Source of the DNA: Candidatus Woesearchaeota archaeon
GTDB lineage: Archaea; Nanobdellota; Nanobdellia; Woesearchaeales; WAPJ01
DNA length: 64,000 nt
Direction: 5' to 3'
Assembly: GCA_047602885.1 (NCBI GenBank)
Contig: JBLKOQ010000001.1
Coordinates: 10,016 to 74,015 of the forward strand
Part shown: one piece after another, positions 5,724-53,111 of the stretch
Layout of the letters: every line of letters starts with the position of its first letter
Position numbering within the stretch: the stretch's first letter is position 1
Program-made: the position numbers and the translations under genes
Notes under the pieces: model-generated
Seen by the model: the letters and a program-made list of their open reading frames with translations, nothing else
What the model was told of the DNA's origin: nothing
Databases searched by the model: none

Positions 5724-5780
5724 AATTATTTACCCTAATAGGGATATGGGGGTTAGTAAGTCATTATAATAATTAGCCCT

Positions 5781-5921
5781 GGCTCTGTCCTAAATCTCCT
5801 ACTTCGCTTACCAAAACCCTATACTAAAGCATAGGAGCTTGGTAAGCTACGCCGTGCCAGTGCCATTATTGCTGCGCAAAATGACACCAACAATGGCAAC
5901 GACGGAGTCTTAGGACAGAGC
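5781..5921. mobile_element. MITE-like element, copy 4 (same GGCTCTGT termini as the other three copies, different internal sequence), flanked by perfect 10-bp direct repeat AATTAGCCCT
   Basis: 5' end GGCTCTGTCCTAAATCTCC and 3' end reverse-complementary GGAGTCTTAGGACAGAGC; direct repeats at 5771-5780 and 5922-5931; GC-rich and internally hairpinned relative to surroundings. Confidence 0.45.
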
Positions 5922-5970
5922 AATTAGCCCTAAAACGCTTATAAACAATATGGTGTGGTATAGCATCACA

Positions 5971-6000: not shown

Positions 6001-7476
6001 ATGGCAATAAAAGCAATAATAATAGGGGCTGGCTATGGAGGGCTTAGCTGCGCAGCACTCCTGGCTAAGGAAGGATATGACGTTCATGTAATAGACAAGA
6101 TAGAACAAGCAGGAGGAAAAGGAAGCCTGCTCCAAGAGGAAGGATTCTCATTCGATATGGGACCTAGCTGGTACCTAATGCCCGACGTATTCGAAAAGTT
6201 CTTCAGCGAATTTGGGAAGAAGCCTGAAGACTATTATACTATAAAGAGGCTTGACCCGTCATACAGGATATACTTTGGGAAGGATGACAAGATAGACATA
6301 AGCCCGAGAATAGAGGACAATGCAGAACTGTTTGATAAACTGGAAGAGAATGGCAGAAAGAAATTCCTGGATTATTTGGCACAGTCAGAATACCAGTATA
6401 ATGTGGCTATGAAGGACTTCGTATACAAGAGGTACACTAAGATAACCGATTTTTTTAACAAAAGGATGGCTACGGAGGGTATGAAGCTAAAAGTGCTAAA
6501 GAATTTTGATAAGCACGTAAGCACATACTTCAAGAGCGACAAGGCAAAAAAGATACTCGAATACAATATAGTATTTCTTGGAGGAACGCCATACAATACC
6601 CCTGCATTGTACAGCATAATGACTCACGTAGACTTCAACCTTGGAGTATGGTATCCTATAGGAGGACTAAACGCAGTAGCAAAAGGAATAGAAAAACTTG
6701 CTTTAGAGCATAATGCAAAATTCACATATAATCATACTGCAGAAAAGATAATAGTAGAAAACGGCAGAGCAGTAGGAGTGATGACCAACAAGGGGAGGAT
6801 AGATGCTGACATAGTCGTCGTTAATGCTGACATGCCACACGCCGAAATCAGCTTATTGGACAAGAAATACCAGTCTTATAACGAAAAGTATTGGGAGAAG
6901 AAGACTATAGCGCCCTCAGGGTTCATAATGTATCTTGGTGTAAAAAGGAAAGTGAAAGGATTAGAACATCATAATCTATTCCTGGACAATGACTGGATGA
7001 AACACTTCGACCAGATATTCAAGAAGCCCGGATGGCCTGACAATCCATCATACTATGTGTGCGCTCCTACAATAACAGAGCCAGAAACAGCTCCTAACGG
7101 AATGGAAAACCTATTCATACTGGTTCCTGTAGCAGCCGACCTGGAGGACAATAACGACATAAGAGAAGAGTATGCCTCCGACATAATAAGGCATTTGGGA
7201 AGCATAATAGGTGATGATTTCAGCAAAGACATAGTATACAAGAAGATATTCGCCCATAATGATTTCATACAAAGATATAATGCGTATAAAGGTACAGCAC
7301 TAGGATTATCACACACCCTCATGCAGTCAGCACTATTCAGGCCTGACGTTAAGAGCAAGAAAGTAAAATCATTGTATTATACTGGACAATACGTGCATCC
7401 CGGCATAGGAGTGCCCATGGTAATAATAGCATCAGACATACTGCGCGGTGTAATACTAAATGAGCATCCGCTTTGA
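6001..7476 (+). CDS. crtI: phytoene desaturase-family FAD-dependent carotenoid desaturase (CrtI/CrtD)
   Basis: N-terminal dinucleotide-binding motif IIGAGYGGLSCAALLAKEGYDVHVIDK...GG; 491 aa; operon with crtB. Confidence 0.85.
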   Translation: MAIKAIIIGAGYGGLSCAALLAKEGYDVHVIDKIEQAGGKGSLLQEEGFSFDMGPSWYLMPDVFEKFFSEFGKKPEDYYTIKRLDPSYRIYFGKDDKIDISPRIEDNAELFDKLEENGRKKFLDYLAQSEYQYNVAMKDFVYKRYTKITDFFNKRMATEGMKLKVLKNFDKHVSTYFKSDKAKKILEYNIVFLGGTPYNTPALYSIMTHVDFNLGVWYPIGGLNAVAKGIEKLALEHNAKFTYNHTAEKIIVENGRAVGVMTNKGRIDADIVVVNADMPHAEISLLDKKYQSYNEKYWEKKTIAPSGFIMYLGVKRKVKGLEHHNLFLDNDWMKHFDQIFKKPGWPDNPSYYVCAPTITEPETAPNGMENLFILVPVAADLEDNNDIREEYASDIIRHLGSIIGDDFSKDIVYKKIFAHNDFIQRYNAYKGTALGLSHTLMQSALFRPDVKSKKVKSLYYTGQYVHPGIGVPMVIIASDILRGVILNEHPL

Positions 7477-15685: not shown

Positions 15686-16324
15686 ATGCAAACCAATATA
15701 AATGATACTATTATAGTATCAATTGATACTAAAATGGAAACGAAATTAAGGATTATAAACAGGATAGACAGGAAAAGCGGCGGAGTGCACATAAGGCAAC
15801 TGGCAAGAGAGGCTAATACAAGCTATAATAATGCAGTAAGAAACATCAGGATACTCGAAAAAGAGAATATTGTAAGAAGAATAAAAGATGCCAACCTCAT
15901 AAAAATATCCCTAAAAGACAATCCTATGACAATAGCATACCTCAAAAAAGTTCATACAGAAAAATACTATAATCTTCCACGAAGAGCAATATTAGCTGTG
16001 AATGAACTAATAAAAGAAATCATCCCAAAACCCCTAATATGCCTAATATTCGGATCATACGCCCGGGGAGATTACCACAAGGATTCGGACATCGACCTGC
16101 TGCTTGTATTCCAGAATGTACAGTCATCAATAAATATAGAAAGACTGGCAAAGGCTATAGGTATGAGAAACAATATAGTTATCAGTCCAATTTACATGAA
16201 CTACAAGGAATATTCTACCAACTTTCTAAACGTAGAACACGATTTCTCTAAAGAAATAAGAAATGACACGATAATAGTTTTAGGACTAGAACACTATTAT
16301 GAGCTATACTGGAGAATATTATAA
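15686..16324 (+). CDS. winged-HTH + minimal nucleotidyltransferase (MNT) domain protein, paralog 1 of 4
   Basis: GSYARGDYHKDSDIDLLLVF polymerase-beta-type NTase motif (GS...DxD) after N-terminal wHTH. Confidence 0.65.
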   Translation: MQTNINDTIIVSIDTKMETKLRIINRIDRKSGGVHIRQLAREANTSYNNAVRNIRILEKENIVRRIKDANLIKISLKDNPMTIAYLKKVHTEKYYNLPRRAILAVNELIKEIIPKPLICLIFGSYARGDYHKDSDIDLLLVFQNVQSSINIERLAKAIGMRNNIVISPIYMNYKEYSTNFLNVEHDFSKEIRNDTIIVLGLEHYYELYWRIL

Positions 16325-17903: not shown

Positions 17904-19744
17904 TAGTCACTCCCTCGCCTAAAAAGGTTCCTGAACCATTCTGCAATCCTGTCAATAAGAGCCCTGGGCCTTTCCCTCTCACGAATGCTTACATCTTTGG
18001 GATCTATTCCTTTGTCATTGACTGCACCATTCCCATTCTCCTCTATGATCTCTATAGGGTCTTCCTCTGCTTCTATTACAGGAGGCGCGGGGGCAACGTA
18101 CTCTACTCCTAATGGAGCAGTCCTTGCTCCAAACCTTACTGTTCCATCTGTTGCAATACTCATGTTTTCCGAGGTCCTAACAGCAGTATAAGAATATAAT
18201 GGTTCATATTGCAGAGCGAATTTGGCAGGCCCAGAAGTAGAGCCTGAAACCCTCTCAGCACCATTAAGCACGTCAGTAATAAGTTCTATGTCTATTCTCG
18301 AATCGACAAGCTTACGACCCCTAACAGTAACAGTGAACTGCTCTCCTATAGCAGGATTCTCAGGATTGATAGTACGGTCAATATCATAAGAGAGCCCTAA
18401 AGGATAAACAGTAACTTTGATATCTCTCTCGTCCCTCTTCGACTCTCTATAGGCTGTCTCATAGTCTATAACAAGTTTAGCAGTAATCTCTGTCTTCTCA
18501 TAGAATGTAGGATAGAATATGCTCTGGGAGAACACGCTGTTGCTCTGGCCTGGAGTAAGAGATTCTATGCTGCTTGTATGAGTATGGAATCCTGACACAT
18601 TAACACGAATGTTTCTGTATGCAAGATCCTTGGTGTTTCTAAGTTCAAGATTAATAAAATCAGTATCTCCTCCAACAACATTCTTCTTGCCTGTCGAGAA
18701 TGACATGTCAATATCAGCAGCGGTAACATCAAGCCTTAAATTCAGAGTCTCATTATACTCTTGATCATTTCTCCTAAAAAAGAACGTCAGGCTGGACTCA
18801 TGGTTGCCTGTATGGTCAGATCTAAGAGTAATAGTGTATTTCTCTTCCTTTCCTGGGGCTAGAGTTAAAGTATTCCCGTCGTTAATAAGCTCATTCATTA
18901 TAGTGCCGCCGTAAGAGACAAGATTATTTCTATCTAACACAGCAGTAATGCTTAGAGGATGAGAACCTACATTTCTTAGTGTAATCTCGCTGTTGACAGT
19001 CTGTCCTACAGAAGCAGGTCTCCTATGATTCAGCCTGATATCATAAGGCTTAATCAGCCTTATTACAGGTCCTGTATATGAAGATGATCCTTCTTGAGAC
19101 CTGTAATGGTAAGTAGAAGACACATTAGTAATAATATCATCTGATGATGCAGCCCTAATCCTAACACTAATTTCTCTTTCCTCATCAACGTTTAGGCTGG
19201 ATAATGTCCATACAAGTCCTGAAGGAACAATCCTGCAGTCAGAACAATACTCTACTATAGTGCCAGGCGTTAACTGAGCAGTAATTCTCACATTCTCGGC
19301 CTGTCTATTGCCGGTATTCTCAACTTTTAGTGTTCCAGTAATTCTGTCATTAATATCCACTCTTGTCGTGTTATAAGCAGTCCTAAAAGTTAACTGTGGG
19401 CCTGTTACATCCATTTCTATACGCATGCCATAGAAAGGATTTCCCATAGTATCAAAACGTATTCTTTTGAAATCCTCCATTTCAACTTCTTTTAAGCATG
19501 TTTGTATGAAATTGTGCTCATGGCATTGTCCAAGGCTGATCAACTGCCTGTAATCGTCAGACTGTACTAATACCCCGTTATTCTGGGTGTTAAGAAAAAA
19601 GAAATAATCGACTTCCTGAAAGTTTACAGAGTCCCCTGAATAAACCCAAGTGTCAATACTGCTTTTGGCCTCAACGGCAACAGTAAGTGCTAATAGTACG
19701 AGCAATCCAAATATTATGATGCGATATCCCATAAGGCTCACCAA
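17903..19744 (-). CDS. large secreted cell-surface protein (repeated beta-sandwich-like domains)
   Basis: Signal peptide MVSLMGYRIIIFGLLVLLALTVAVEA; 613 aa, Thr/Ser/Asn-rich beta-rich sequence. Confidence 0.5.
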   Translation of the reverse strand: MVSLMGYRIIIFGLLVLLALTVAVEAKSSIDTWVYSGDSVNFQEVDYFFFLNTQNNGVLVQSDDYRQLISLGQCHEHNFIQTCLKEVEMEDFKRIRFDTMGNPFYGMRIEMDVTGPQLTFRTAYNTTRVDINDRITGTLKVENTGNRQAENVRITAQLTPGTIVEYCSDCRIVPSGLVWTLSSLNVDEEREISVRIRAASSDDIITNVSSTYHYRSQEGSSSYTGPVIRLIKPYDIRLNHRRPASVGQTVNSEITLRNVGSHPLSITAVLDRNNLVSYGGTIMNELINDGNTLTLAPGKEEKYTITLRSDHTGNHESSLTFFFRRNDQEYNETLNLRLDVTAADIDMSFSTGKKNVVGGDTDFINLELRNTKDLAYRNIRVNVSGFHTHTSSIESLTPGQSNSVFSQSIFYPTFYEKTEITAKLVIDYETAYRESKRDERDIKVTVYPLGLSYDIDRTINPENPAIGEQFTVTVRGRKLVDSRIDIELITDVLNGAERVSGSTSGPAKFALQYEPLYSYTAVRTSENMSIATDGTVRFGARTAPLGVEYVAPAPPVIEAEEDPIEIIEENGNGAVNDKGIDPKDVSIRERERPRALIDRIAEWFRNLFRRGSD

Positions 19745-19787
19745 TACAAAAATATCATAATAGACTTATAAATACTTCTATCAGAAG

Positions 19788-19922
19788 GGCTCTGTTGCAA
19801 ATCTCAGAAAAAGTGTGCTATGCGCCACCCCGCAGGGGGCATCCCCCGGCACATCAGCGTCAAGCGTGAACGTTCGTTCCCGCTCCAGCTGACGGCTGCC
19901 GCACACTATTTGCAACAGAGCC
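19788..19922. mobile_element. MITE-like element copy 1 (GC-rich core, 15-bp inverted termini GGCTCTGTTGCAAAT, TSD TATCAGAAG)
   Basis: Terminal inverted repeats; direct repeats at 19779-19787 and 19923-19931; about 60% GC island in AT-rich DNA; homologous to the copies at 26981 and 52831. Confidence 0.55.
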
Positions 19923-19940
19923 TATCAGAAGATTCAATCC

Positions 19941-22277
19941 ATGCAGAAAAGGTTTATATACCCTAATAATGTTGATTCTGATATGCCTTCAAAAAAGACT
20001 GTACAGGAACAACTAGATTTTCTAAGGCGGGAGGCAGGTAAGAACAACAGATTATTGGAAAAGGTGCTGTCTCAACAAAAAGAGCAGCATAAGAGAATAG
20101 CTGTATTGGAGAAGAAGGTTGGGAGTCCTAATAAGGATACTGTAATAGATGATTCGCCTACAACATTGAATCAGTATGACAATCAGGAAATACCACAATC
20201 AAGCTCTAGCAGCGTTCCTGTCAGCGCAATACTCCTAATAATATTCGGAGCACTATTGACATTAACAGGAATAGGAGCCCTTATAGGAATACCATTAGTA
20301 GTATGGGGCATTATAATAGTATCCAGAAACCAGGAGCAGGAAGGAAGAGCAGAATCTGTTGAAGAAAAGCCAATAAAAGATGATAATCTTAAGATAACTC
20401 CCAAGCCAGTAGAAGAAAAGCCCAAGACTTCATTAGAAGAAGATGTAGGGATAAAATGGTTTGCCAGAATAGGAATAATAGCATTAGTTATAGGAATAGG
20501 ATTCTTCATAAAATATGCTATAGACATGGAATGGATAGGACACTTGACAAGGATACTGCTAGGAGCATTACTGGGCATAGGAATGATTATGGTAGGAAAG
20601 ATATCAAGCATGAAAGAAAGGTATGAGTTATGGGGCAAGACACTCATGGGAGGAGGCATAGCAGTATTATACTTTGCAGTATACGCATCATACCATTTTG
20701 AGGAGTACAGACAAGCGATAGGAATAGGACAATACACCAACATAGTATTGTTAAGCATCATAGTATTAGTGGCAATATGGCTTTCCATAAGAGACAACAG
20801 CCAGATAATAGCGTCAGAATCATTCTTCTTGGGGTTCCTCACAGCACTACTAAGCACAGAATACACTATAATGACTATGATGTATTGCATACTGCTTGCA
20901 TTAGGAATAGTAATAGTTACAGCATACAAGGGATGGATAGGCATAGGAATAGGAGGAGCGATAGCATCATACATATCATATATTGTATGGGCGTATCCAA
21001 GACAAGAATTCATACTCGGAATAATATTCCTGTCAATACTTTACACTGCATTTACGATACAATCAATAATACTGTCCAAGAAAAAAGAGCTGTCCACTTA
21101 TGGGATGATAATATACATTGCAAACAGCATCACCTTCTTCTTCCTGGGGTATTTGAGGGTAGAAGGGTCGTATCCTGAGCATACAGCATTATTACCATTA
21201 GCACTATTCATAATACACTGGATAATAGCATTATACTACAAGATAAAAGACAATAGGCTGATGAGAGATGCCAGCCTATACTTATCAGTATCATACATTG
21301 TAATGACAGTGTTATTGCACTTCAACAATGATTATATTACATTATTATGGGCTATGATAGCAGTAATAACAGCATATGCGTACAAGAGTTCTAAGATACA
21401 TAGTTTAAGATATTCTGCTTACGCATTATCATTATTAGTATTATTAAAGATACTATTATATGACATAATAAACCTGCAGGCCTATACTCCTACAGATATT
21501 ATTGGCAGCATGAGACTGTGGTCTATGCTAGGAGGAATAGGGGCATTATACATTATTAGGAGTATACTGGCGAGCGATAAAAGCATTAGGGAAGGAAAAG
21601 AAAAAAGTATTATAGAAGTGTATTCGTGGACTGCATTATCATTACTTGTAATAATGATACTGCTAGAGTTTTCAAGCCAATACACATTATTCGTTACAAT
21701 AGCGCTAGGAGCACTGTCATTAGCATTGTTGTTCAACAGCAGAGCCAATAATATGATGCTATACCAGGCTACAGCAGTATCAAGTGTTATGATACTAAAA
21801 ATATTATCATACGATACTCTAACGCTAAAAACATATTCTGAACATGTTCTGCTTGCTGAAACTACGCTGTTGGCATATCTTACAGGAATAACAGTATTAT
21901 ACATTCAGAGCAGAATGCTATTAGGCAAGGAGGGCGATGATGCCATAAGGAAATCATTAGGAATAGGATATTCTTACGCTGCAACACTTCTTGGAGTAGT
22001 AATGATAATGATAGAAATGCAGGGTTACTGGATATCTATAGGATGGAGCATATACGCGCTAATACTAATGGCTGTAGGAATAAGCACTGGCGACAAACAA
22101 TTAAGATTCCAAGGAATAATAGTATTTGGCCTTACAATAATCAAAGTGTTCCTATTCGATACGAGGAACTTAGAGACAATATACAGGACCATAAGCTATA
22201 CCGTGCTAGGCGCACTGCTCCTTGCAGTATCATTCCTCTATGCAAGATACAAGGAGAAGCTAAAAGAAATATTGTAG
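19941..22277 (+). CDS. large polytopic membrane protein with N-terminal cytoplasmic coiled-coil (DUF2339-like architecture); start may be 19983
   Basis: About 20 predicted TM helices after a charged N-terminal segment; 778 aa. Confidence 0.5.
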   Translation: MQKRFIYPNNVDSDMPSKKTVQEQLDFLRREAGKNNRLLEKVLSQQKEQHKRIAVLEKKVGSPNKDTVIDDSPTTLNQYDNQEIPQSSSSSVPVSAILLIIFGALLTLTGIGALIGIPLVVWGIIIVSRNQEQEGRAESVEEKPIKDDNLKITPKPVEEKPKTSLEEDVGIKWFARIGIIALVIGIGFFIKYAIDMEWIGHLTRILLGALLGIGMIMVGKISSMKERYELWGKTLMGGGIAVLYFAVYASYHFEEYRQAIGIGQYTNIVLLSIIVLVAIWLSIRDNSQIIASESFFLGFLTALLSTEYTIMTMMYCILLALGIVIVTAYKGWIGIGIGGAIASYISYIVWAYPRQEFILGIIFLSILYTAFTIQSIILSKKKELSTYGMIIYIANSITFFFLGYLRVEGSYPEHTALLPLALFIIHWIIALYYKIKDNRLMRDASLYLSVSYIVMTVLLHFNNDYITLLWAMIAVITAYAYKSSKIHSLRYSAYALSLLVLLKILLYDIINLQAYTPTDIIGSMRLWSMLGGIGALYIIRSILASDKSIREGKEKSIIEVYSWTALSLLVIMILLEFSSQYTLFVTIALGALSLALLFNSRANNMMLYQATAVSSVMILKILSYDTLTLKTYSEHVLLAETTLLAYLTGITVLYIQSRMLLGKEGDDAIRKSLGIGYSYAATLLGVVMIMIEMQGYWISIGWSIYALILMAVGISTGDKQLRFQGIIVFGLTIIKVFLFDTRNLETIYRTISYTVLGALLLAVSFLYARYKEKLKEIL
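19953..19960 (+). promoter_or_regulatory. TATA box (TTTATATA), suggesting the downstream membrane protein gene starts at the Met at 19983
   Basis: Canonical A/T box 23-30 nt upstream of the ATG at 19983. Confidence 0.3.
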
Positions 22278-26164: not shown

Positions 26165-26932
26165 TTATTGCATCTGATACTGCTTTATCAGGTCTTCATA
26201 ATCCATATCCTCATAAGCAGTAGGACTGCTCGGAAGGTCAAAGACTCCTGAAGGAATACTCCTGGAGATGCTTGTAGCTATCATCTCAGACTCTGTAGTC
26301 ATCCCCTCAAACTCCTGCATACTCTTAACATATACGGGAATGCCTTCAGGAGTATAACAATAATCCATAGTACCCATGCCAATAACAGCCCTATAACAAT
26401 TGCTAGTAACCCCTGCTACTGTCTTTGGAGGAAGCCTTGATACTACTCCTTGTTCTATTATGGCTATGCTCTCTTCGTCTACCTGCTCAACACTATCCCC
26501 TACAGGAATACTAGAGTAGTCCATGCAATTCCAAGCGCCCATAATAAGAGTACAAGTATAATAATTATCTCCTAATACGTAAGACCTGGATTCTATGCCC
26601 TGCATAAGAGTATCCACTCTTATCCTGCCATCACTGCTCACATAATAAGTTGCTTTCATATCCTGCTGCACAGGACCAGAGGATATTTTCATATCATATT
26701 CTATATGATAGTTCATAGTCATCTGCCTCCTCATAAGTCCTGCAAGCTCTTGGTTAAGAGCATTGTCTCCACTACTCTCTACCACATTTTGTTCTGGAGT
26801 TTTAGGAACACTATCGTCAATTACTAATTCATTGTCGTCTATAACAATAGGTGCAGGCTGAGTATCATCGTTGCAACCGGCAATAGCCAGTGCAATAACA
26901 GCTAACAATATTATAGCTTTCATAAGATCCAC
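26165..26932 (-). CDS. secreted lipoprotein-like hypothetical protein
   Basis: Signal peptide with IAGC|NDD lipobox-like cysteine; 255 aa. Confidence 0.45.
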   Translation of the reverse strand: MDLMKAIILLAVIALAIAGCNDDTQPAPIVIDDNELVIDDSVPKTPEQNVVESSGDNALNQELAGLMRRQMTMNYHIEYDMKISSGPVQQDMKATYYVSSDGRIRVDTLMQGIESRSYVLGDNYYTCTLIMGAWNCMDYSSIPVGDSVEQVDEESIAIIEQGVVSRLPPKTVAGVTSNCYRAVIGMGTMDYCYTPEGIPVYVKSMQEFEGMTTESEMIATSISRSIPSGVFDLPSSPTAYEDMDYEDLIKQYQMQ

Positions 26933-26980
26933 CCTATACTACAGGCAATAACCATGTTATATATAACTTGTGAATTAAAT

Positions 26981-27115
26981 GGCTCTGTAGAAAATGTCCG
27001 AAAAAATGTGCTATGCGCCACCCCGAAGGGGTCATCCCCCAGCGCATCAGCGTCAAGCAAGAACATATGTTCTTGCTCCAGCTGACGGCTGCCGCACACT
27101 TTTTACTGCAGAATC
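26981..27115. mobile_element. MITE-like element copy 2 (same GC-rich core; TSD GAATTAAAT / GAATCAAAT)
   Basis: GGCTCTGTAGAAAAT ... TTTTACTGCAGAATC inverted termini; imperfect 9-bp direct repeats at 26972-26980 and 27116-27124; core about 85% identical to copies 1 and 3. Confidence 0.55.
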
Positions 27116-27118
27116 GAA

Positions 27119-27871
27119 TCAAATATCTATAATCTTCTCTACTTGGGTAGCAAACACTATCCACAATAACAATCCAGCACTAATCATCAGTCCAATAGCA
27201 TATCCTATAGGAGCATACAGCATGAATATTCCAAACAATCCTACAGCAGCCAGTAATGCCCAGTACATAGGATTATGGTATATAGTATAGAATCCTCCCC
27301 CATTAGGGATTGGAATAACATTAGCAAGACTGGTCCATACCATAGCTACTATAATGGCATTGGTTACAGGATTGCTAAAACCGAATATTATTATGAACAG
27401 CATGGCGATAAAGAGGTTAGAGAGCATACCTGCAAAACCCATCTTGGCATAGTCTGAAAGATTAATGCCGTGCCTGAACTTTCCTGTCCTCTGATACCTC
27501 AATATCTTAGCTTCCATGTCAGGAACGAATATTAACGGTGCAAGGCCTGCAGAGAATATGCCCACAAACAGTCCTGCGGCTATCTTCCAAGGAGAATACA
27601 ATACTTTTACATCAAAACCCTTATGCAAAGCCCAAGCCTTCTGTACCAATACATTAAGATATATTGCTATTCCGGCAGCGATAATTGCAAGCAGCATTGC
27701 CATGGACTGCCTTGCAGGATCAACAGGAAGGAATTCCCTAAAAATATTATAGTCCTCAAAGCCCAATACGAAGCCGCCTACAGCAATAAAAGCTATAATA
27801 ATCTTATTCTCATCCCATCGTGGAATGCAATACTTCTGGTAGTCGTGCCACCATCCTGAAAGGCTGAACAT
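27119..27871 (-). CDS. hypothetical integral membrane protein (6 TM)
   Basis: 250-aa ORF; MITE copy 2 abuts its stop codon. Confidence 0.4.
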   Translation of the reverse strand: MFSLSGWWHDYQKYCIPRWDENKIIIAFIAVGGFVLGFEDYNIFREFLPVDPARQSMAMLLAIIAAGIAIYLNVLVQKAWALHKGFDVKVLYSPWKIAAGLFVGIFSAGLAPLIFVPDMEAKILRYQRTGKFRHGINLSDYAKMGFAGMLSNLFIAMLFIIIFGFSNPVTNAIIVAMVWTSLANVIPIPNGGGFYTIYHNPMYWALLAAVGLFGIFMLYAPIGYAIGLMISAGLLLWIVFATQVEKIIDI

Positions 27872-28024: not shown

Positions 28025-28525
28025 TTACAATAATAATATCTCTTGGGTTTTGTTCATAAATCCTATGACTTTGCTCTCATATTCTAATATCTTATCATTC
28101 CTAAAACCTATATTAGTGTTATAACTCGCTTTATGCCTGTCATATTTTAAGTCATAATACAATTGTGCGTCCTCCCTATTGATAGACAATTCGTATAATA
28201 AGTCCGCTTCATCTCTTGTCACAAGATACTCTTTTATGAGTATGAGCATAGTCGCATAGTGGTTTTTGGAATAATATCTTCTGTTGGTAATTAAGCTCAG
28301 TGCGCAATGGTAGAATGCATAATACAATATTACTATGAGCCAGTCTGCAAAATTGGTATGGATTTTGTTTATACTATAAAACCTCATATTGTGCTTGGCC
28401 TTATTAGCATGCGAAAAAGCAAGTTCCTTATTCTCCTTAATAATCCTAATCTGTTTTTGCGATTGCAGTATGCTTATCTCGGTCTCCAGATAATGTTTGT
28501 CTGCAAATAGTCGTTCGATATTCAT
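28025..28525 (-). CDS. HEPN-like helical protein, putative toxin partner of the upstream MNT gene
   Basis: 166 aa, 4-nt overlap with the NTase gene; Rx4-6H-like RRYYSKNH; homologous to 61571..62074 (YYAxY...S.NH..T.L). Confidence 0.4.
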   Translation of the reverse strand: MNIERLFADKHYLETEISILQSQKQIRIIKENKELAFSHANKAKHNMRFYSINKIHTNFADWLIVILYYAFYHCALSLITNRRYYSKNHYATMLILIKEYLVTRDEADLLYELSINREDAQLYYDLKYDRHKASYNTNIGFRNDKILEYESKVIGFMNKTQEILLL

Positions 28526-29088
28526 TCTATAATCGCCTCATAAAAATTCTGTTCCTTGTGTATTGGAAAACCTGTCTTTTTTGCCTGTATTATTATATCG
28601 TCATTACTTCGAATAAACTGCTCTGCAGAACAATAGAAGAGCGAGAGAGGATATTTTGAGGTTATCTCAGCCTCTTTCCTGCGCTTATCAAGGTCAGTTT
28701 TTTTATAGTACACTATGAGGAGGTCTATATCGCTGTTTTGATTCTGATCTCCGGTCGATGCAGAACCGAACAGAACTATAGTGTATATGCTTATGGGCAA
28801 GTCTTTGAGGAATGTCCTGAGAGGGCTCTTAACACCAATATTTAATGAATTGAATTTGCGTATTGCTATCTCTGAGAACTTGATTGCAATAATCTTTTTA
28901 TCACTAATAGAATAGTATACGTTTTGCCTGGTCTTTTCAGTTTTTAGTATGCCTTGCCTACTCATTCTGGCAAGAGTGTTCTGCAAAGAACTATGTGATA
29001 GCATAGTAGTTTCCTTAATCTGGTTATAGTACATCTTTTCTCCCTTCTGCACAAAGTATGCGTTGTATATTCTGTCTTCCGGTTTCAT
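28522..29088 (-). CDS. winged-HTH + minimal nucleotidyltransferase (MNT) protein, paralog 2
   Basis: LFGSASTGDQNQNSDIDLLIVY NTase motif, N-terminal wHTH. Confidence 0.65.
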   Translation of the reverse strand: MKPEDRIYNAYFVQKGEKMYYNQIKETTMLSHSSLQNTLARMSRQGILKTEKTRQNVYYSISDKKIIAIKFSEIAIRKFNSLNIGVKSPLRTFLKDLPISIYTIVLFGSASTGDQNQNSDIDLLIVYYKKTDLDKRRKEAEITSKYPLSLFYCSAEQFIRSNDDIIIQAKKTGFPIHKEQNFYEAIIE

Positions 29089-32321: not shown

Positions 32322-32903
32322 CTATCTTATCATCTCATAGAAATATTCCGTTCCGTGCAATATAATATTATTATTAATCGCTTCTGAGCCCACAGTAAAT
32401 TCTTTAGACATACTCATAGACTTGAATTCTGTTTCATTAAAAACGTTGATATGTAGAGGCAGTGGTATAGTGGATGATATGCTCATTATTTCTTTATTCA
32501 TAATTTCTTCTAGACCATCGGGTATGATGAACAATAGATCAATATCAGAATGTCTTGTTGGGTTTCTTTTAGCATAACTTCCAAAAAGCAACAATACGAA
32601 GAATACAGTACTCATATTATTATAATAGCTTAAAACTGCTCTTATCGTCTTATTTCTTAGGATATCTTCTCTTCTATTATGCTCTGCTTCAAATATGTAG
32701 GGGTGCGGTTTTTTTACTAGTGTGACTTTGTGGGCATTTCCAAAAGGCTCTAATACTACTATGTTATTGTTTGCTAATCTCATAATTATATTATGCATGT
32801 TCTTATAATCCTTTTTTAGTATCTTGGCCAGTCCTCTAATGCTCAATCTCAGGTTATTGTAGTCCAATAATGCCTGGATAACTTTTACATCTGCTTTTTG
32901 CAT
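32322..32903 (-). CDS. winged-HTH + minimal nucleotidyltransferase (MNT) protein, paralog 3 (no HEPN partner)
   Basis: LFGSYAKRNPTRHSDIDLLFII NTase motif. Confidence 0.6.
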   Translation of the reverse strand: MQKADVKVIQALLDYNNLRLSIRGLAKILKKDYKNMHNIIMRLANNNIVVLEPFGNAHKVTLVKKPHPYIFEAEHNRREDILRNKTIRAVLSYYNNMSTVFFVLLLFGSYAKRNPTRHSDIDLLFIIPDGLEEIMNKEIMSISSTIPLPLHINVFNETEFKSMSMSKEFTVGSEAINNNIILHGTEYFYEMIR

Positions 32904-35421: not shown

Positions 35422-38400
35422 TTGGGCTTGAAACAAGTTGTAGTGCAAGTAACGATAGTAGTAGTTATAATAGCTGCGCTTATATTCACATTCTTTAGTA
35501 TTGGAGAGCCTACAATTACAGGTTATGCTGTATTTGAGAGCAGTGTTAGTAATGTCAGTTATGACGTGGAAAGGGTAGTGTTGCCACAAGAAACTTATAC
35601 TATTCAGTTGGAAGATAATGTTGTTGTAAGAGGAATAGTAATTAATGGTTATTATATTGCAAGCAAAGATTCTAGTATTATTGCAAGGCTTGATGAAGGG
35701 ACTATTAGTCATGAATTGAGGTTGAGAAGCAATGTTATTACTGGCATGGCTATCGGTGCTGGAGAAGTTGAGAGTGGTATGATAGAAGAAGACTTGGCTA
35801 ATAGGACTTTGTTGAGGTATGGTGATGGTCCTTATGATATCGATAATGATGGAATGGTAGGGAGACAAGGAGCAGTAGACTATTATGTTGAAACTAATGC
35901 TTCTTGTGTATTATGGAGTATTGTAGGGGATGATGTTGACCTATTCTGTCAGGGAACAATAGAATGCTGTGACAGTTATCTATTGGAGAGCATGGATGAC
36001 AATCCCAATTATTTAGTGTTGGATAGGCAAAGAGCAGGTGCTGACAGAGGAGAAGTATTGGCCAAAGCTGACGGTTATGATTTTAGTAGAATGTTGCCTT
36101 ATGATTTTACTGGTGCTGAGGAGAGACTGGTAAGATTGGATGATGTTTGTTTGGGAAGTTGTAATGTTAGGATGCAGAGCAGTAGTATAAGGATAGAGAG
36201 CAGTGCTTATTTGCATATAGACAGGATTATAGTATATTATGATGATTTGCCAGACGATGAGATATTTGATACAGAGGATGGCAACATAATAGAAGAAGTA
36301 TTACCAGAAAAAAGAGTCATAAGAGAAGAGATGATAGAATATATAGTGTATGAGTCAGAAGGAGGTATTATTGGAAGAACCGTCTCAGAACTAAAAAGTC
36401 ATTATGGTCTTAGCAGGGCATCTGAACGTTCAGCAAAGATATTTTCAATGGATTATGAGCATATCAGTGAAGAGGAAGAAACAGAGTATACCGAAGGGAT
36501 TAATGCTCATATAATTAGAGTATCATCAGAGCTTCTAAATCTAGTAACAGAAGAAAGCGTAAGAATCATAATATTAAATGAATCAGGAATATACTCAGAA
36601 TACGCCAATAATTTATCAGAGCTAAACGAAATACTACACTCTAAAGAAGTTATAACAGCTAGTATCGACAGACAAATAGAATTGTTAACACAAGATACTC
36701 TTAATGCATCAGGGTTTATATCAGTATATAATGAGTATGAGGTTTCTGGTTCTGGTGTTCGTGTATGTATTGTAGATACGGGTGTATCGGGTCATGTGGT
36801 TGAGAATATATCATATACTGGTGTCAATGTTCTTGATGGTACCGATGACATAATGGATTACCATGGCCATGGTACTCTTGTTTCGTACCCTTTGATTCGT
36901 GCATTACCTGATGCCCATTATGTGATTGTAAAGGCTTTGGATGATACTGGGATAGGATATGAGTCTGATGTTATTTCTGGATTGGATGCGTGTGCTGAAC
37001 ATGATGTTGATGTTGTTTCTCTTTCTATAGGAGCTGGATTGTATGATGGGTACTGTGATACTAACCTTGTATCAGAGCGTGTGAATGAACTTGTGTCTGA
37101 AGGAGTCTTGGTAGTTTCTGCTGCAGGTAATGAGGCTGGTCCTTATTTGAAGGCTCCTTCATGCGCTTCCTCTGCTCTTGCAGTTATTGCTTACACTGAT
37201 GATTCGTTATGGTATCAGTCTTCATACTTGGAAGGTCATGCAGTATTTGCCGCTCCTGGTGTTGTTGAGACTATTGGTCCTGATGGTTCTGTGGTTTTAT
37301 CTTCTGGTACGTCTATGAGTGTTCCTTTTGTTAGTGCAGCTGCTGGTTTATTGGTTGAGTATACTAATGACACGGGACTAGTGTTACGTAACAGACTGGT
37401 TGGCACAGGTGATCTGCTTGGTGATGAGTTCTTGTTTTCTCGTCTGAATGTTTCGAGGGCTTTTTCGGGTGAGATTACGAATGAGTTGTTGTATAATATT
37501 AGCGAGGGCGTTGAGGTAGAGGGGACTGTATATTATCGTGGTACGAGTTTTATTGCAGGAACTATCACCACAGGAAATGGGCATTCGTGTGGTATTCGTG
37601 CTGTTGATGGTCGTGTTTTGTGCTGGGGTAGGAATAACGTGGGTCAAATTGGCGATGGTACAACTGCAGGTCCTCGTACGAATCCTACTTTAACTACTGA
37701 TACTTCTGCATATACTTTTATTTCATCAGGCGAACAACATTCGTGTGGTATTCGTGCTAATGATTCTCGTGTTTTGTGCTGGGGTAGTAACGGGAATGGT
37801 GTGCTTGGTGATGGTACTACTGTTCAGCGTGAAAATCCTACTTTGATTAATGATTCTTCAGCGTATCTTACACTTGGGTTAGGTCAAGGTCATTCGTGTG
37901 GTATTCGTGCTAATGATTCTCGTGTTTTGTGCTGGGGTTGGAATGGGAATGGTCGACTTGGTGACGGTACGGATGAAGCTCGTTGGAATCCTACATTGAC
38001 TTCTGATACTTCTGCATACAGCGGAATAACTGCAGGTGCCCACTACTCGTGTGGTATTCGTGCTAATGATTCTCGTGTTTTGTGCTGGGGCACTAATAAT
38101 TATGGTCAGCTTGGTGATGGTACAGATGTTGTTCGTTGGAATCCTACATTGACTTCTGATACTTCCGCTTACCTACATGTTTCTGGAGGAGGTTGGCATT
38201 CGTGTGGTATTCGTGCTAGTGATTCTCGTGTTTTGTGCTGGGGTAGGAATAACGTGGGTCAGATTGGCGATGGTACTACCACCACTCCTCGATTGAATCC
38301 CACTTTAACTACTAACACGTCTGCGCATGGTACTGTTTCTGCTGGAAACGATTATTCGTGTGGTATTCGTGTCAATGATTCTCGTGTTTTGTGCTGGGGT

Positions 38401-41400
38401 GCTAATGATTATGGTCGGCTTGGTGATGGTACTACTACAGGTCCTCGTACAAATCCCACTTTGACTGCAGACTCTTCTGCATATGTAGCCGTTTCAGCGG
38501 GGGATTGGCACACTTGTGGTATAAGATCTTACGATGGTCGTGTGTTGTGTTGGGGGTATAACGAGTTCGGTCAGATTGGCGATGGTACCACTACGACTCC
38601 ACGTCAAAATCCAACGCTTACAAGCAACATGGCTCCATTCGCCGAAATTCCTTGGGTCTTTACAACATGCGAAGCAACTGGTCGCACTGGTCCTACTCAA
38701 GGTATGTGTGACGATGCATACGAATACTCTTATCTGAACAATAGTGTAACTGTATCTTCAGGCATACAATCATGGACTGTTCCTGAGACGGGATGGTATA
38801 ATGTTACTGCAGTTGGAGCTCAAGGAGGATACGGTGGGAGAACGGGTGTTGGGGGATACGGCGCTCTCATTTCAGGTGCTTTCTACTTCGAAGAGGGAGA
38901 GACAATCAATGTTCTCGTTGGTCAGAAAGGTGGAGATAACTCGTTTCGACCGGCAGGTGGTGGTGGAAGTGCAGTGTGGAAGGATACTGGAACCGAACTC
39001 CTCATCGTCGCTGGAGGTGGAGGAGCGTATGCAGTTGGAACAACGACCACCTACCAGGACCGAGCACACGCGAGCAACACAACAAGTGGGAAGGATGGAT
39101 TTGGTGCCACGGCTCAGAGCGTGGGTGGAACCGGAGGTCTTGGAGGTGCCGGAACAGGTAACCGAGCCTCTGGTGGTGGAGGATGGTTTACTGATGGTGG
39201 ACAGGGCACGACGGCTGACAGTCGTGGCCGATCCCTCTCAGGAGGGGGTCTTGGAGGTGGTGGTGCTGTAGCTGACGGTGGATTTGGTGGTGGCGGAGCG
39301 ACCGATAGCACGACGACATGGGGTGCTGCTTCTGGTGGTGGTGGGTACTCTGGTGGTGGGGGTGGGTATTCTAACACAAACGATGCTGAAGGAGCTGGGG
39401 GCGGTGGAGGATCATACAATTCTGGGTTGTTCCAGTATAACGTCGGAGGAGAGAACGCTGATCATGGCTTGGTCATTATCGAGCCATACGGTGATGTCTC
39501 ATTACTCACCGTGGGAGTTACTCCTTCTCCCGAAGCGAACGCTACCGATGATCTTCTTGGATATTGTACGAGTGATGTCATCGATGGATTCGACCGGATC
39601 GACTATGAGTGGAGACGTGACGGCATAGTCGAGTACATGGGAACGTACTTTAGAGCAGATACGATCACAGCGCATGAAGCTCACACTTGTGGTATTCGTG
39701 CTAATGATTCTCGTGTGTTATGTTGGGGACGCGCGGGTAGTGGTGAGATTGGGAATGGAAGCAAGCTACCACAAGTGCTTAATCCAACACTCACCTCTGA
39801 TACTGATCCTTACCTTCAAGTGAGCGTCGGATTCACTCATTCGTGTGGTATCCGCTATGACGGAAGAGTGCTCTGCTGGGGAAACAACGCTGAAGGGCAG
39901 TTGGGAACAAACGATACGACTGAACGACTCGTTCCTACTTTGATTGCGGATGATGCTGCCTACCATTCCCTCAGCGCAGGATACCGGATGAATTGTGCGA
40001 TACGTGCTAATGATTCTCGTGTGTTATGTTGGGGTGACAATGTATTCTCTCAACTCGGCAGTGGAGGTGGATCGGTGAGCGTTCCGAGGCTCATCAATGA
40101 TACCGCTTCCTACCTGATGGTTTCCACTTACAAGTACCACGCGTGTGGTATTCGTGCTAATGATTCTCGTGTGTTGTGCTGGGGGATGAACTGGTACGGT
40201 CAGGGTGGTAATGGAACAACTGACGAGTTCGTGTCATCCGAGACTCCGACCCTCACGACCGATAGTTCACCATATGTAATGGTAACAACAGGTGCCTCTC
40301 ATACGTGTGGTATTCGTGCTAGTGATTCTCGCGTGTTGTGCTGGGGTCGTAATAATAATGGGCAGCTTGGAATCGGTTCGAGCGGTACAAATGTCGGTAA
40401 CCCCACAACGACTTCAGATTCATCTGCATATCACTACATAGATGCTGGTTGGCAGTTCTCATGTGGCATCAGATCGTCTGATAATAGAGGTCTTTGTTGG
40501 GGGGATAATGGTGAGGATAAACTTGGTATCGGAACGACCGGTAATCGTGAAAACCCTACACTTATATCTGCTTCGTTTGCGATATCGTTGATTACTGCTG
40601 GTGAACGCCATGGGTGTGTGGTTCGCTCTTCGAATGGGCGTGTGTACTGCTGGGGACAAACTGCTGAAGGACGTACAGGAGATGGGGTAGGTATTGGTAC
40701 TGAGCACACACCGACGCTCACAACAGACACTTCCTCGTATGCGTACTTACCTGCTATTGCCTCTGGCGTGCAGTATAACCTCTCAACACTTGACTCAACG
40801 ATAACGAATGGTGGAGACTCATGGACGTTCTCATGCCGGATTACAGACGGTCGAACGACCTATCCATACGAGGAGAGTGCTACGATAACGATTGCAAACA
40901 TTATTCCGATTTATTCAAAGTTTGATGGTTCAACAACGAACTTTTCTGATGCTAGTGTTGTTCCTGACCTTTCAAGCGTGAGCAATCCGATTCTTGAGAT
41001 ATCCACGTTCGGACGCATCACATGGAAAGGTATGGTAAACGTTCCTAGTTCAGATTATGATTCTCATGTGCATATTGGTTATCGGTACATTTTTGTTAAT
41101 AGTAGCGCGTTGCATTCATCTCATGATTCGGGTTCGAATTTGAGCTTTTATGATACGGGCTTCGTGCATGCTCCTGTCATCCTCAAAGATAGTTCTGTGT
41201 GTGAACAACCCTTGTGTAACATGACTGGATTTGTTGATGGTTACGTGAATTACTCAGTGGCTGGTTTCTCAAACTACACGCTTGATTCTAATAGTCGATT
41301 GGAGATCTGGGATGGTACTGATCCTCAAGGAGGAAATAATTCGTATGAGGTTGGTGAATCGGTGCCTTTCTATGCAAATTATTCGAATCTGACTTCTGGT

Positions 41401-44400
41401 GAACCGATTTCGGGTTCGGGGAACGATTGTGAGATCCAATTTGATACTGGGAGCGGGTATGGGAGTTTTATAGAGATGGAATTTAACGCAACAAGTAACT
41501 TGTACGAGTACAACACCACATTTGGATCTGCAGGGACGTTCAGTTATAACGTGAGTTGCACTAGCACCCAAGGATATGAGAACCTGAGCGTGACTAATGA
41601 GTTCACATACAATCCTGCAAACTGTTTTGACAATTCGACGAGTCCTATACCAATTTGTACATGTACTGATCTTAGCAGGATGTGGGAGAACCTTACAGCA
41701 AACTATGAATTGCAGAATAATATAGACTGTAGTGATACTATTAATTGGAATGATGATGAGGGATGGCTGCCTGTAGGGACAACAGGTACGGGTTTTAGTG
41801 GTACGCTGGATGGGCAGGGATATAATATTACTGACTTGTTCATTGCTCGAAATAATGTTGGTTATCAAGGTTTGTTTGGTCAGTTAACTACAGGAGGAAG
41901 CATTACTGATTTAGGTTTGGTGAATGCGAATATCACCATAAAAGACACACTCAGTATAGTGACTCCATATATTGGGATTCTTGTAGGATATATCGATGGA
42001 GGCAGTGTCTCTGGATCTTATGTCACAAATAGTATTCTCTATAGTGATTTTCCCTCTACTGGTGGTCTTATAGGAGAAATGAGTGGTGGTAGTGTTGTCT
42101 CATCTTCTTTTGTTAGTGGTTCTAGTGTTTCTTCTTCTACTAGTAATGTTGGTGGTCTTATAGGAAGAATGAGTGGTGGTAGTGTGTCATCTTCTTATAC
42201 GGTGGATTCTAGTGTTTCTTCTACTGGTAGTAGTGTTGGTGGTCTTGTAGGATATATGCTGAGTGGTAGTGTTGTTTCATCGTCTTATACTATTGGTTCT
42301 AATGTTTCTTCTACTAGTACTCGGGTTGGTGGTCTCGTAGGAAGAATGTGGAGTGGTTCTAGTATTGTTGATTCTTACAGTACTAGTAATGTTTATGCTC
42401 TTGCAGGAGAAAACTTACAATATCATGGTGGACTAGTAGGACAAAACTATAGGGGAGTGATAAACAATTCTTATAGTACAGGAATAGTTAATAGTACACA
42501 TGATGATAGTGGTGGTTTTGTAGGAAGCGTAGATACAGGAGCTGCGACTTATGGTATGTATGGTAACTTCTGGGATAACCAGACAAGCGGTCGTAGTACT
42601 AGTGCTGGTGATAATGTAACAGGACTTACTACAGCGCAGATGTATAATATCAGTCAGTTCTTAGCGGCAGATTGGAATATTAGTGAGATTAGCGGTTATA
42701 ATAATGAGACTTGGTTTATTGATGATGGTAATGATTATCCTAGATTATGGTTTGAGTTTGATCTTGCTTTATTGGATATTGAGTCTGTAGGCATTATTCC
42801 AAGTCCTTTTGCTTTGGATGATGAGAATCTCGTAGGGTATTGTAGTGCTACTGGTAGTGAGAATTTTACGAGGTTGGATTATTTGTGGTATAAGGATGAT
42901 GTAGTGGAGTATGGGGGTGCTTATTTCAAGGAAGGAAGTATTAGTGCTGGTGGGGAGTTTTCTTGTGGTGTTCGTGCTAATGATTCTCGTTTGTTGTGTT
43001 GGGGTGCTAATTTTGTTGGTAAGTTGGGTATTGGTAATACTACTCATATGTATAGTCCTGTTTTGGTTGATTCTTCTGATGCTTTTTTGAGTGTTTCTGT
43101 GGGTGTTTCTCATTCTTGTGGTGTTCGTGCTAATGATTCTCGTGTTTTGTGTTGGGGGCTAAATAGTGAGGGGCAGTTGGGTATTGGTAATACTACTGAT
43201 ATGTTTAGTCCTGTTTTGGTTGATTCTTCTGATGCTTTTTTGAGTGTTTCTTTAGGTAGTTTTCATTCTTGTGGTGTTCGTGCTAATGATTCTCGTGTTT
43301 TGTGCTGGGGTGGTAATATTTATGGTCAGTTGGGTGTTGGTAATACTACTGATATGTTTAGTCCTGTTTTGGTTGATTCTTCTGATGCTTTTTTGAGTGT
43401 TTCTTTAGGTAGTTTTCATTCTTGTGGTGTTCGTGCTAATGATTCTCGTGTTTTGTGTTGGGGTGGTAATTGGGTTGGTCAGTTGGGTGTTGGTAGCGCT
43501 GTTTATGATTCGTGTTTTGATGGTTATGAATATTACGATTGTAGTTTGAATCCTGTTTTGGTTGATTCTTCTGATGCTTTTTTGAGTGTTATGGTGGGTG
43601 TTTCTCATTCTTGTGGTGTTAGGGCGAGTGATTCTCGTTTGTTGTGTTGGGGTGCTAATGCTAATGGTCAGTTGGGTGTTGGTAATACTACTGATATGTT
43701 TAGTCCTGTTTTGGTTGATTCTTCTGATGCTTTTTTGAGTGTTGGTCTTGGTTTTGGACATTCTTGTGGTGTTAGGGCGAGTGATTCTCGTGTTTTGTGT
43801 TGGGGACGTAATTTTGGAGGTCAGTTGGGTGTTGGTAATACTACTAGTCCTATTATGGTTCCTGTTTTGGTTGATTCTTCTGATGCTTTTTTGAGTGTTG
43901 ATGGTGGTTTTGGTGGTGGTTTTGGTGAGCAGCATACGTGTGGTGTTCGTGCTGTTGATGGTCGTGTTTTGTGTTGGGGTGATGGTTCTTTTGGTGCTTT
44001 GGGAACAGGCAATACTAGTTCTCAGTTGAGTCCGACTCTTACTATTGATTCGAGCAGTTATCTTAGGGGGCTTTCTCCGCAGACGACTTATAATGTTTCT
44101 TTGATAGGGAGTGGGTTGACTAGTTTGGGGGAGGAGTGGAAGCTTAGTTGTCGCGCTGTAAATGTTACTAGTGCGGGGGATTTTGTTAATTCTACTGTTA
44201 CTACGATTGATGAGGGTGAAGAGGGTTTGGATTGTGGTGTTATCGATGAGCCTGGAGAGTATATTATGAATGGCGACCTTGCGGCTACCGGAACTTGTAT
44301 TACTATTAATGTTAGTGATGTTTCATTAGATTGTCAGGGTCATACGATCAACTACTCTACAAACGATGACGAGGGCTACGGTATCCTGATATGGAGCCAG

Positions 44401-52784: not shown

Positions 52785-52830
52785 AAACAGCCATGATAGA
52801 ATGATATTATTTAATACTATCCCTTAGATT

Positions 52831-52966
52831 GGCTCTCTAGTAAATGTCTGTAAAAGTGTGCTATGCGCCACCCCGTAGGGGCCATCCCCCGGCGGCATCA
52901 GCGTCAAGCAAGAACAGGTGTTCTTGCTCCAGCTGACGGCTGTCGCACACTTTTACTACAATGCCT
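52831..52966. mobile_element. MITE-like element copy 3 (same GC-rich core) 47 bp upstream of the EEP gene start
   Basis: GGCTCTCTAGTAAAT ... TTTTACTACAATGCC termini; imperfect direct repeats CTTAGATT / TTCAGATT at the flanks. Confidence 0.5.
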
Positions 52967-53111
52967 TCAGATTACATAATAGTCATCGTGGTATAATGAG
53001 GATAGAGATCCAATTCTGAGCTTGTCTATAATCCTAGTAGGGTCTTTAGGCCTAAGAATATTGTCATACATCAGCATCTCGATAATACTCGATAATGGTG
53101 TGCTAGGATAG

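Follow-up and report, generated by a model that had tools for sequence, protein, structure and literature searches.

A probable miniature transposable element carrying a conserved three-way junction in a Candidatus Woesearchaeota genome

The element and its setting

In a 64-kb stretch of a Candidatus Woesearchaeota genome, hereafter the window (the whole of the DNA that was analysed), a 135-nt element of 60% GC lies on the plus strand at 19788–19922, within the spacer between a minus-strand surface-protein gene that starts at the ATG at 19732 and a plus-strand DUF2339 gene that starts at the ATG at 19983. A first-pass annotation of this DNA had described the element as resembling a miniature inverted-repeat transposable element (MITE) situated in a divergent promoter region, and the two start codons bear out that location. 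The left terminal inverted repeat (GGCTCTGTTGCAAAT, plus strand, 19788–19802) and the right one (ATTTGCAACAGAGCC, plus strand, 19908–19922) are exact reverse complements of each other (15/15), just as the annotated 15-bp termini require, and they are bordered by perfect copies of TATCAGAAG on the left (19779–19787) and on the right (19923–19931). The reported 9-bp target-site duplication is therefore present at both flanks, with a qualification as to its length: a repeat finder lengthens the direct repeat to 10 nt (CTATCAGAAG, 19778–19787 and 19922–19931) by making use of the last C of the element, which is an equally good parse, and because the placement of the element's 3' end is open to choice the duplication is 9 or 10 bp.

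The element also stands out in composition and folding. Its GC content, given earlier as about 60% in an AT-rich region, is 60.0% against 28.9% for the rest of the spacer and 38.9% for the window, and its predicted fold has an energy of -68.8 kcal/mol against -40.6 kcal/mol for shuffled sequences (z = -7.2). An unbiased scan of all 64 kb for a 9-bp direct repeat around inverted termini (at least 11/14 complementary and 80–400 nt apart) returned only this element and a second one at 5781, so that chance in AT-rich DNA does not account for the pattern. As previously noted, the TATA box of the downstream DUF2339 gene (TTTATATA, plus strand, 19953–19960) lies outside the element. The ATG at 19983, rather than 19941, is the start of that gene, about 22 nt past TTTATATA, and for this reason the exact 778-amino-acid (aa) form of the open reading frame (ORF) is not on record. 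The DUF2339 protein is identical to one encoded by a metagenome-assembled genome recorded at NCBI as 'Candidatus Woesearchaeota archaeon', on a contig of 85,109 nt. On the other side, 13 nt separate the left end of the element from a TATA-like box of the surface-protein gene, recognized by inspection (TATTTATAAG, minus strand, 19765–19774).

Further copies in the window

Three copies of the element, all on the plus strand and 84–92% identical, are found in the window, at 19788–19922 (copy 1), 26981–27115 (copy 2) and 52831–52965 (copy 3), successive copies being 7 and 26 kb apart and all of them lying among housekeeping genes. Copy 2, whose 3' terminus has decayed, is flanked by GAATTAAAT (26972–26980) and GAATCAAAT (27116–27124), which agree at 8/9 positions, and copy 3 by the degenerate pair CCTTAGATT (52822–52830) and CTTCAGATT (52965–52973, including the terminal C), which agree at 7/9. 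A fourth element, on the plus strand at 5781–5921, has the outer termini of copy 1 (GGCTCTGTCCTAAATCTCC / GGAGTCTTAGGACAGAGC) around a different interior; its 18-nt arms are 89% complementary, it is enclosed by a perfect 10-bp direct repeat (10/10) of AATTAGCCCT at 5771–5780 and 5922–5931, and it retains CCTAC past its 5' arm and ACGACGG ahead of its 3' arm. The window thus holds at least four such insertions, whose flanking repeats are four different sequences (9/9, 8/9, 7/9 and 10/10) and whose shared termini can be written in the search form GGCTCTGT(N3)AAAT. At 135–141 nt, the elements are too short for a transposase gene. Among the three copies, the core is 87–92% identical and the termini 73% (variable columns 15/100 versus 11/30, p = 0.017), a difference that is suggestive of a better-kept core, with three copies only.

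Assemblies of short reads provide a separate view of the same sites. In Logan assemblies of the same organism, from two sequencing runs, contigs break inside the elements: L068 and L069 both stop 54 nt into the 5781 element, L070 stops about 44 nt into copy 2, and L071 and L072 start about 50 nt into copy 3. This is the behaviour of a dispersed repeat in short-read assemblies, and contigs that terminate within the elements display neither filled nor empty sites. Taken with the inverted termini, the flanking duplication, the small size, the absence of coding sequence and the further copies with duplications of their own, these repeat-type breaks uphold the MITE-like reading of the first-pass annotation. 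The more unusual part of the element, which that annotation did not remark upon, is its conserved and covarying interior, common to an archaeal lineage.

All four elements have one orientation and are 46–57 nt upstream of a minus-strand start codon, the intervals between start codon and element being 5724–5780, 19733–19787, 26924–26980 and 52785–52830, and 8–14 nt beyond a TATA-like box. This promoter-proximal siting could be due to a preference for targets close to promoters, to selection acting on spacers that are very short, or to function. Before insertion, the spacer that received copy 2 was only about 50 nt long, and copy 2 begins 4 nt past the stop codon of the upstream minus-strand gene; since the spacers are so short, the narrow insertion position is possibly the sole point that is tolerated.

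Fold of the interior

In the three copies the interior forms a three-way junction, in which the strands GACGG and CUAY connect helices A, B and C. In copy 1, with all parts on the plus strand, the 5' strand of helix B (AAAAAGTGTGC, 19808–19818) pairs with the 3' strand (GCACACTATTT, 19901–19911), helix A (19820–19854) consists of stem S (ATGCGCC / GGCACAT) around a near-invariant 22-nt motif (CCACCCCGCAGGGGGCATCCCC, 19825–19846), and helix C (CAGCGTCAAGC...GCTCCAGCTGAC, 19855–19893) is a closed hairpin. The junction strand GACGG (19891–19895) is kept in the apparently permuted relatives described below and in the 5781 element. Long invariant GC-rich blocks are common to the three copies, and the apical stem of helix C shows compensating changes between them, GCGTGAAC/GTTCCCGC in place of GCAAGAAC/GTTCTTGC.

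The motif, whose general form is CCACCCCG-N-AGGGG-N-CAUCCCC, is made up of a 4-bp hairpin with a G-N-A triloop (19828–19838) followed by an unpaired conserved strand, GCATCCCC. Across diverged modules, CCCC-GNA-GGGG is closed by CG in 62 sequences, by UA in four and by GC in three, and these closing positions are never unpaired. An alternative hairpin within the motif, GGGG-NCAU-CCCC, shows no compensation, as all of the changes at the partner position (7/7) break the pair. From the compensation of the closing pair and the failure of this competitor, it follows that the motif is a 4-bp G-N-A hairpin and then unpaired NCAUCCCC, inside stem S. C-GNA-G is a classic and very stable DNA mini-hairpin.

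In each of the elements the minus strand forms the more stable fold of the two: -76.1 versus -68.8 kcal/mol for copy 1, -57.0 versus -47.3 for copy 2, -63.7 versus -58.0 for copy 3, and -76.5 versus -57.7 for the 5781 element. Across the wider family this advantage is weak (mean difference 2 kcal/mol, p = 0.014).

A family in Woesearchaeota and Nanoarchaeota

A search of public collections (596 Gb) with the pattern CCACCCCG-N-AGGGG-N-CATCCCC, which has 20 specified bases and for which about one chance match is expected, found 36 loci in metagenome contigs and 30 in species-representative genomes, almost all of these 66 belonging to Woesearchaeota or Nanoarchaeota. The genome matches are to metagenome-assembled genomes (MAGs) of Woesearchaeota or Nanoarchaeota, except for four labelled Methanosarcinales and a Spirochaetales coding region that looks like the expected chance match, and several MAGs have the motif on two or three contigs. 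The four loci of the former kind (L038, L039, L043 and L065) come from MAGs labelled 'uncultured Methanosarcinales', with GC contents of 32% to 65%; mis-binning, mislabelling or transfer outside DPANN could account for them. A first genome scan with an over-specific pattern (GCGCCACCCCG...) gave 0 matches, as did a scan of viral contigs for the motif. No recurrent protein family was found beside the motif, the only shared 'ORFs' being spurious frames across the motif itself, and no tRNA-like or tmRNA-like features were found. With Rfam 15, neither the window nor 20 loci had a match at the gathering score, ribozyme families included, and permissive settings returned chance-level matches only (E up to 10 for the window element and up to 1 for eight small loci). 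In Rfam and the searched literature, there is no published description of the motif, the junction or the family in DPANN archaea.

Most matches have a layout here called L-type, UGGCGGC-nnGAC-GG-[hairpin B]-CCUAC-[stem S]-motif-[stem S']-GUCnn-GCGCCA, and covariation was measured on 24 L-type sequences for this three-helix junction, with RNAalifold in agreement. In these sequences, 90.7% of cells are paired, as compared with 73% in column shuffles and 33–41% when partners are slid, both-sided changes occur in 17/21 pairs, and the observed covariation was reached in 0/500 shuffles. Double changes number 89 and one-sided changes three, and G·U occupies 3/463 cells, a near-absence that is consistent with complementarity being preserved in the DNA itself or being required of both strands. 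A covariance model of the junction recovers 80 modules in 370 kb of fetched loci and, in the window, just the three known copies, even with filters off. Stem S also has a recurrent sub-type, CUCGCC...GGCUCG, in 13 loci (e.g. L013, L016, L021, L022, L029, L046, L052 and L057); because the same tandem U·C / C·U mismatch is present in many independent loci, it looks like a conserved internal loop and not decay.

Permuted layouts, doublets and genomic arrangement

A second layout, W-type, comprises the window copies and about 10 other loci, including L002, L038, L040, L047, L051, L053, L055 and L064. In W-type modules the junction is open at helix B and helix C is closed by a loop, whereas in L-type modules helix C is open and helix B closed. 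The W-type helix B has the form AAAAGU-nnnn...nnnn-ACUUUU and covaries (GUGUGC/GCACAC, GUUGCC/GGCAAC, GUCGCG/CGCGAC and GUCGCC/GGCGAC). The window, L038, L051 and L064 have the same cyclic order, B-A-C, and the same junction strands, CUAY before helix A and ACGG before the 3' strand of helix B. The L-type locus L023 reads GGCTGGACGG ... CCTATGCGCC-motif-CGTCGCATCCAGCGCC and the window GCTATGCGCC-motif-AGCGCATCAGCGTC ... CAGCTGACGG, so that the two have in common the blocks CTATGCGCC-motif-GCATC(C)AGCG and GCTG(G)ACGG, swapped in order. To judge from these alignments of blocks, one and the same junction is probably circularly permuted between the L-type and W-type forms.

Modules also occur as abutting (+)(-) inverted doublets, of which there are more than 10 pairs, many of them L-type, with an overlap of about 6 nt (e.g. 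L003, L007, L010, L016, L017, L018, L027, L042, L052 and L056); the window copies are singlets, not doublets. The second module of a doublet usually has a diverged motif such as UCCCGUAGGGAGCAACCCC, and at L003 small CGCCAC-nn-GUGGCG hairpins lie between units, resembling BIME mosaics. In one MAG, modules are in the spacers of NuoE/NuoF-like and SufBD-NifS-NifU-SufC operons (L064, 839–907 and 2808–2902; L051, 330–408 and 3211–3233). The (+)/(-) module pairs that are 1.9–2.8 kb apart at two loci were considered as the ends of full-length elements and rejected, since NuoE/F-like and Suf genes, and no transposases, lie between them. At L059, two modules lie between two tRNA genes (712–785, 824–894, 930–964 and 1136–1207), and at L013 (about 6720–7030, the same locus as L054) an L-type module is seemingly nested in a second inverted repeat of greater length, AAAAACCCAACCACAACATAGGC ... 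GCCATGTTGTTGGGTTTTT, which is itself flanked by a 10-nt direct repeat, TTTATATGAA, an arrangement that may be one element inserted into another. Across the family, the orientation of flanking genes relative to the motif is tandem on the opposite strand in 11 cases, tandem on the same strand in nine, divergent in nine and convergent in two; the motif hence favours neither orientation with respect to adjacent genes, and spacers of the convergent, terminator-only kind are avoided (2/31).

Signs of mobility extend to these relatives. Exact 9-mer direct repeats are at the flanks of 13/58 instances, as compared with 9% for mismatched flanks. The clearest case is L004, an independent metagenomic relative that reads CGCTAGAGG, GGCCGCATTGAAAAC ... 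TTTTCAATGCGGC, CGCTAGAGG, with a perfect 9-bp repeat and termini that have the GGC...TTG.AAA pattern in common with the window elements. Flanking repeats are also found at L053 (TTAAAGGCA), L047 (AAACAATAA, A-rich), L038 (GCTCAGACT) and L021 (TAACATCGTTA), where the termini differ; those of the first three loci are about 9 bp long.

Interpretation as a non-autonomous transposon

Inverted termini together with a target duplication of 9, possibly 10, bp are the footprint of insertion by a DDE-type transposase, whether by cut-and-paste or by copy-and-paste, and the segment at 19788–19922 is, with a probability of roughly three in four, a non-autonomous DNA transposon (MITE) of this Candidatus Woesearchaeota genome. 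The transposase would make staggered cuts 9–10 bp apart and would act in trans from a locus elsewhere in the genome. An enzyme of the IS5 family, IS903 group, is a candidate: the inverted repeat of IS903B is GGCTTTGTTGAATAAATC and its direct repeat is 9 bp long (PMC10569121), and the group is proposed because 9/10 of the first terminal bases of the window elements match and the duplication is of equal length, although similarity is poor farther in. Since several archaeal insertion sequence (IS) families also make duplications of 8–10 bp, this assignment is a lead, with about one chance in three of being correct.

A number of observations weigh against this account of the element. The IS903 resemblance amounts to about 10 bases and a duplication length common to several archaeal IS families. 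Scanning of about 40 window ORFs with Pfam found no transposase, and tblastn and phmmer searches with the IS903 transposase found no match in about 435 kb, made up of the window and 72 archaeal loci, as distinct from the whole genome. The window termini are in none of the 66 archaeal loci from the collection scans, and one sequence-specific transposase would not easily recognize all of the termini in the family, those of L038, L047 and L053 being quite different. The nearest homologue of the flanking DUF2339 gene is about 40% identical, so that no close relative offers an orthologous empty site for comparison. Finally, transposition alone leaves the covariation and the permuted forms unexplained, as a DDE transposase needs no folded interior.

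In the host genome, the junction module would be packaged between ends that the transposase recognizes; and, because of the Watson–Crick covariation, the circular permutation and the inverted doublets, the fold itself appears to be maintained, as single-stranded DNA (ssDNA) or RNA. Our leading guess, drawn by analogy with bacterial REP hairpins, is that the fold may be recognized by a protein, of the host or of a mobile element, that works on single-stranded nucleic acid. An influence on the transcription of nearby genes, if there is one, would be a side effect. A broader and more tentative proposal, one we would not put at even odds, is that the junction and its invariant motif (the CCCC-GNA-GGGG hairpin and unpaired NCAUCCCC) form an undescribed functional module of Woesearchaeota and Nanoarchaeota, either a REP-like ssDNA recognition structure or a permutable RNA or ribozyme class borne on mobile repeats, of which the window MITE would be one vehicle.

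Alternative explanations

The best surviving rival, though a rather improbable one, is that the family is the archaeal counterpart of REP/REPIN sequences, i.e. hairpins moved as ssDNA by a Y1 HUH enzyme (RAYT or IS200-like), with the window copies as one packaging. Several traits of the family lend it some appeal, namely the common head-to-head inverted doublets, as in REPINs and BIMEs, the modules in inter-cistronic operon spacers, the covariation by Watson–Crick pairs only, the better folding of the minus strand and the great stability of C-GNA-G as a DNA mini-hairpin. Moreover, on the minus strand the L-type junction strands read GTAGG and CCGTC and so contain GTAG and CGTC, the tags that define two REP superfamilies (PMC3733652). 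The tag of the window copies is, however, ATAG (with CCGTC) and not GTAG, and the module is three-armed and about 85 nt long, as opposed to the single hairpin of 20–40 nt of a REP. The window elements and L004 have target duplications of 9–10 bp, and the window elements have inverted termini, neither of which is produced by Y1 transposition. About 435 kb of archaeal DNA contained no homologue of the Escherichia coli RayT protein, and surveys place tagged REPs in bacteria only and archaeal Y1 enzymes in the IS200 type only (PMC3733652, PMC6006769), which also counts against the idea.

Somewhat less probable still is a reading in which the elements encode small structured non-coding RNAs, or a small self-cleaving ribozyme that travels on a mobile element; the outer inverted repeat would then be a closing stem and selection would act on the RNA fold. 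Very stable folds (z = -3.8 to -8.3), three strongly covarying helices, an invariant unpaired strand, a core better kept than the termini and TATA-like boxes on either side of copy 1 are all compatible with RNA, and circular permutation of a junction is a familiar trait of hammerhead, twister and other small ribozymes. Against this, G·U pairs (3/463 cells) are scarcer than is usual for RNA families, there is no orientation bias with respect to genes, no Rfam 15 family matches, whether the threshold is the gathering score or a permissive one, catalytic-core motifs are not visible, and the exact duplications at the flanks, together with the breaks in the assemblies, are marks of mobility and not of ordinary paralogous genes. 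Inspection for known classes led to the rejection of hammerhead, HDV-like and twister ribozymes, the box C/D k-turn, the group II intron 5' end and the GNRA-receptor motif, the defining sequences of which are absent. A riboswitch or mRNA leader was likewise set aside, given that a promoter lies between each element and its gene and that the family has no strand bias, as was an integron attC site, for which there are by inspection no R''/R' cores (RYYYAAC ... GTTRRRY) and no same-orientation cassette arrays, the copies being 7 and 26 kb apart.

The siting of the elements invites a third and unlikely explanation, that of a domesticated portable terminator or insulator whose GC-rich fold and U-run would halt read-through into the promoter downstream. 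All four elements are in one orientation, 46–57 nt upstream of a minus-strand start codon and 8–14 nt upstream of its TATA-like box; minus-strand U-runs (U5, U6 and U4 in copies 1–3, respectively) come after helix B; and copy 2 begins just 4 nt past the stop codon of the upstream minus-strand gene. Yet the 5781 element has no U-run, and the family lacks orientation bias and avoids convergent spacers (2/31). The siting itself would look the same without any function, as such short spacers tolerate insertion only just upstream of the promoter. A terminator or insulator role is thus possible for the window copies and unsupported by the family as a whole. Lastly, a chance inverted repeat or ordinary promoter-region hairpin, in favour of which there is only the AT-rich context, is refuted for practical purposes by the multiple copies, the flanking duplications and the family-wide conservation.

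Comparison with known systems

As a transposon, the window element is close to the MITEs derived from the IS5 family and IS903 group, which are likewise short and non-coding, have termini beginning with GGC (here GGCTCTGTTG, which resembles GGCTTTGTTG of IS903), make a 9-bp target duplication and occur as several intergenic copies per genome. It departs from them in that no parent IS or DDE transposase was found in the window or the 72 loci, the duplication is perhaps 10 bp, the host is a DPANN archaeon, the interior is no remnant of IS ends, and the three-way junction is common to elements with other termini or none. The Correia elements of Neisseria, ERIC/IRU and RUP are 100–150 nt long, have inverted termini, a target duplication and stable hairpins, are co-transcribed with their neighbours and fold as simple long hairpins from their own termini. 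The window elements are like them in size, termini, duplication and stable folding, and differ in the probably permuted three-way junction and the lineage-wide motif; none of these elements is known to be a permuted junction or to have a motif common to a phylum-level lineage.

Permutation itself has precedents among small ribozymes: hammerhead types I–III and twister are circularly permuted, having one junction with different helices open, and are carried by mobile repeats. The archaeal module is like these in its probable permutation and in being carried by mobile repeats, and unlike them in having no catalytic-core sequence, no Rfam match and almost no G·U pairs. Within the archaea, the SM elements of Sulfolobus are MITEs and are non-autonomous. 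An automated census of MITEs counted 105 per Mb in a Woesearchaeal genome, one of the densest among the archaea (PMC11602168); it gives counts only, and the searched literature holds no description of structure, motif or family.

For the conserved junction the nearest analogy is with bacterial REP, BIME and REPIN sequences (PMC3733652), and the shared traits include GC-rich covarying hairpins beside GTAG-like and CGTC-like tags, doublets, placement in operon spacers, compensation by Watson–Crick pairs only and lineage-wide persistence. The archaeal module differs from these in having about 85 nt, three helices, both tags around one hairpin and an additional invariant 22-nt motif, and the window copies differ by having target duplications and termini that are inverted repeats. 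About 435 kb of archaeal DNA yielded no RAYT, an enzyme that has not been reported in archaea (PMC6006769).

Other genes of the window

A 534-aa protein encoded at 62130–63734 contains small- and large-subunit primase domains, i.e. a fused PriS-PriL, and this gene, with the TATA-type promoters, fits a DPANN archaeon. One ORF of 4486 aa extends over 35422–48882, with many 153-nt (51-aa) repeats at about 37.5–44 kb as well as other repeat families, and presumably encodes a giant surface protein. Three paralogous genes for minimal nucleotidyltransferases (NTP_transf_2 / Polbeta), at 15686–16324, 28522–29088 and 32322–32903, are each adjoined by small ORFs, with which they may form toxin–antitoxin-like pairs.

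Significance

That an archaeon should have a MITE is unsurprising; the unusual part is what it carries, a three-helix junction with a 22-nt motif, both conserved across DPANN genomes of 32–65% GC, kept by compensating changes, occurring in permuted and doublet forms, and absent from Rfam and the searched literature. In practical terms, assemblies of Woesearchaeota from short reads are fragmented by these repeats, which might also be used as lineage markers. Should the fold be one that a protein recognizes, it would point to an undescribed archaeal system for handling ssDNA, analogous to the REP/RAYT system that has so far been confined to bacteria; if it acts as RNA, it would be a new and abundant family in organisms whose repertoire of non-coding RNA is almost unknown.

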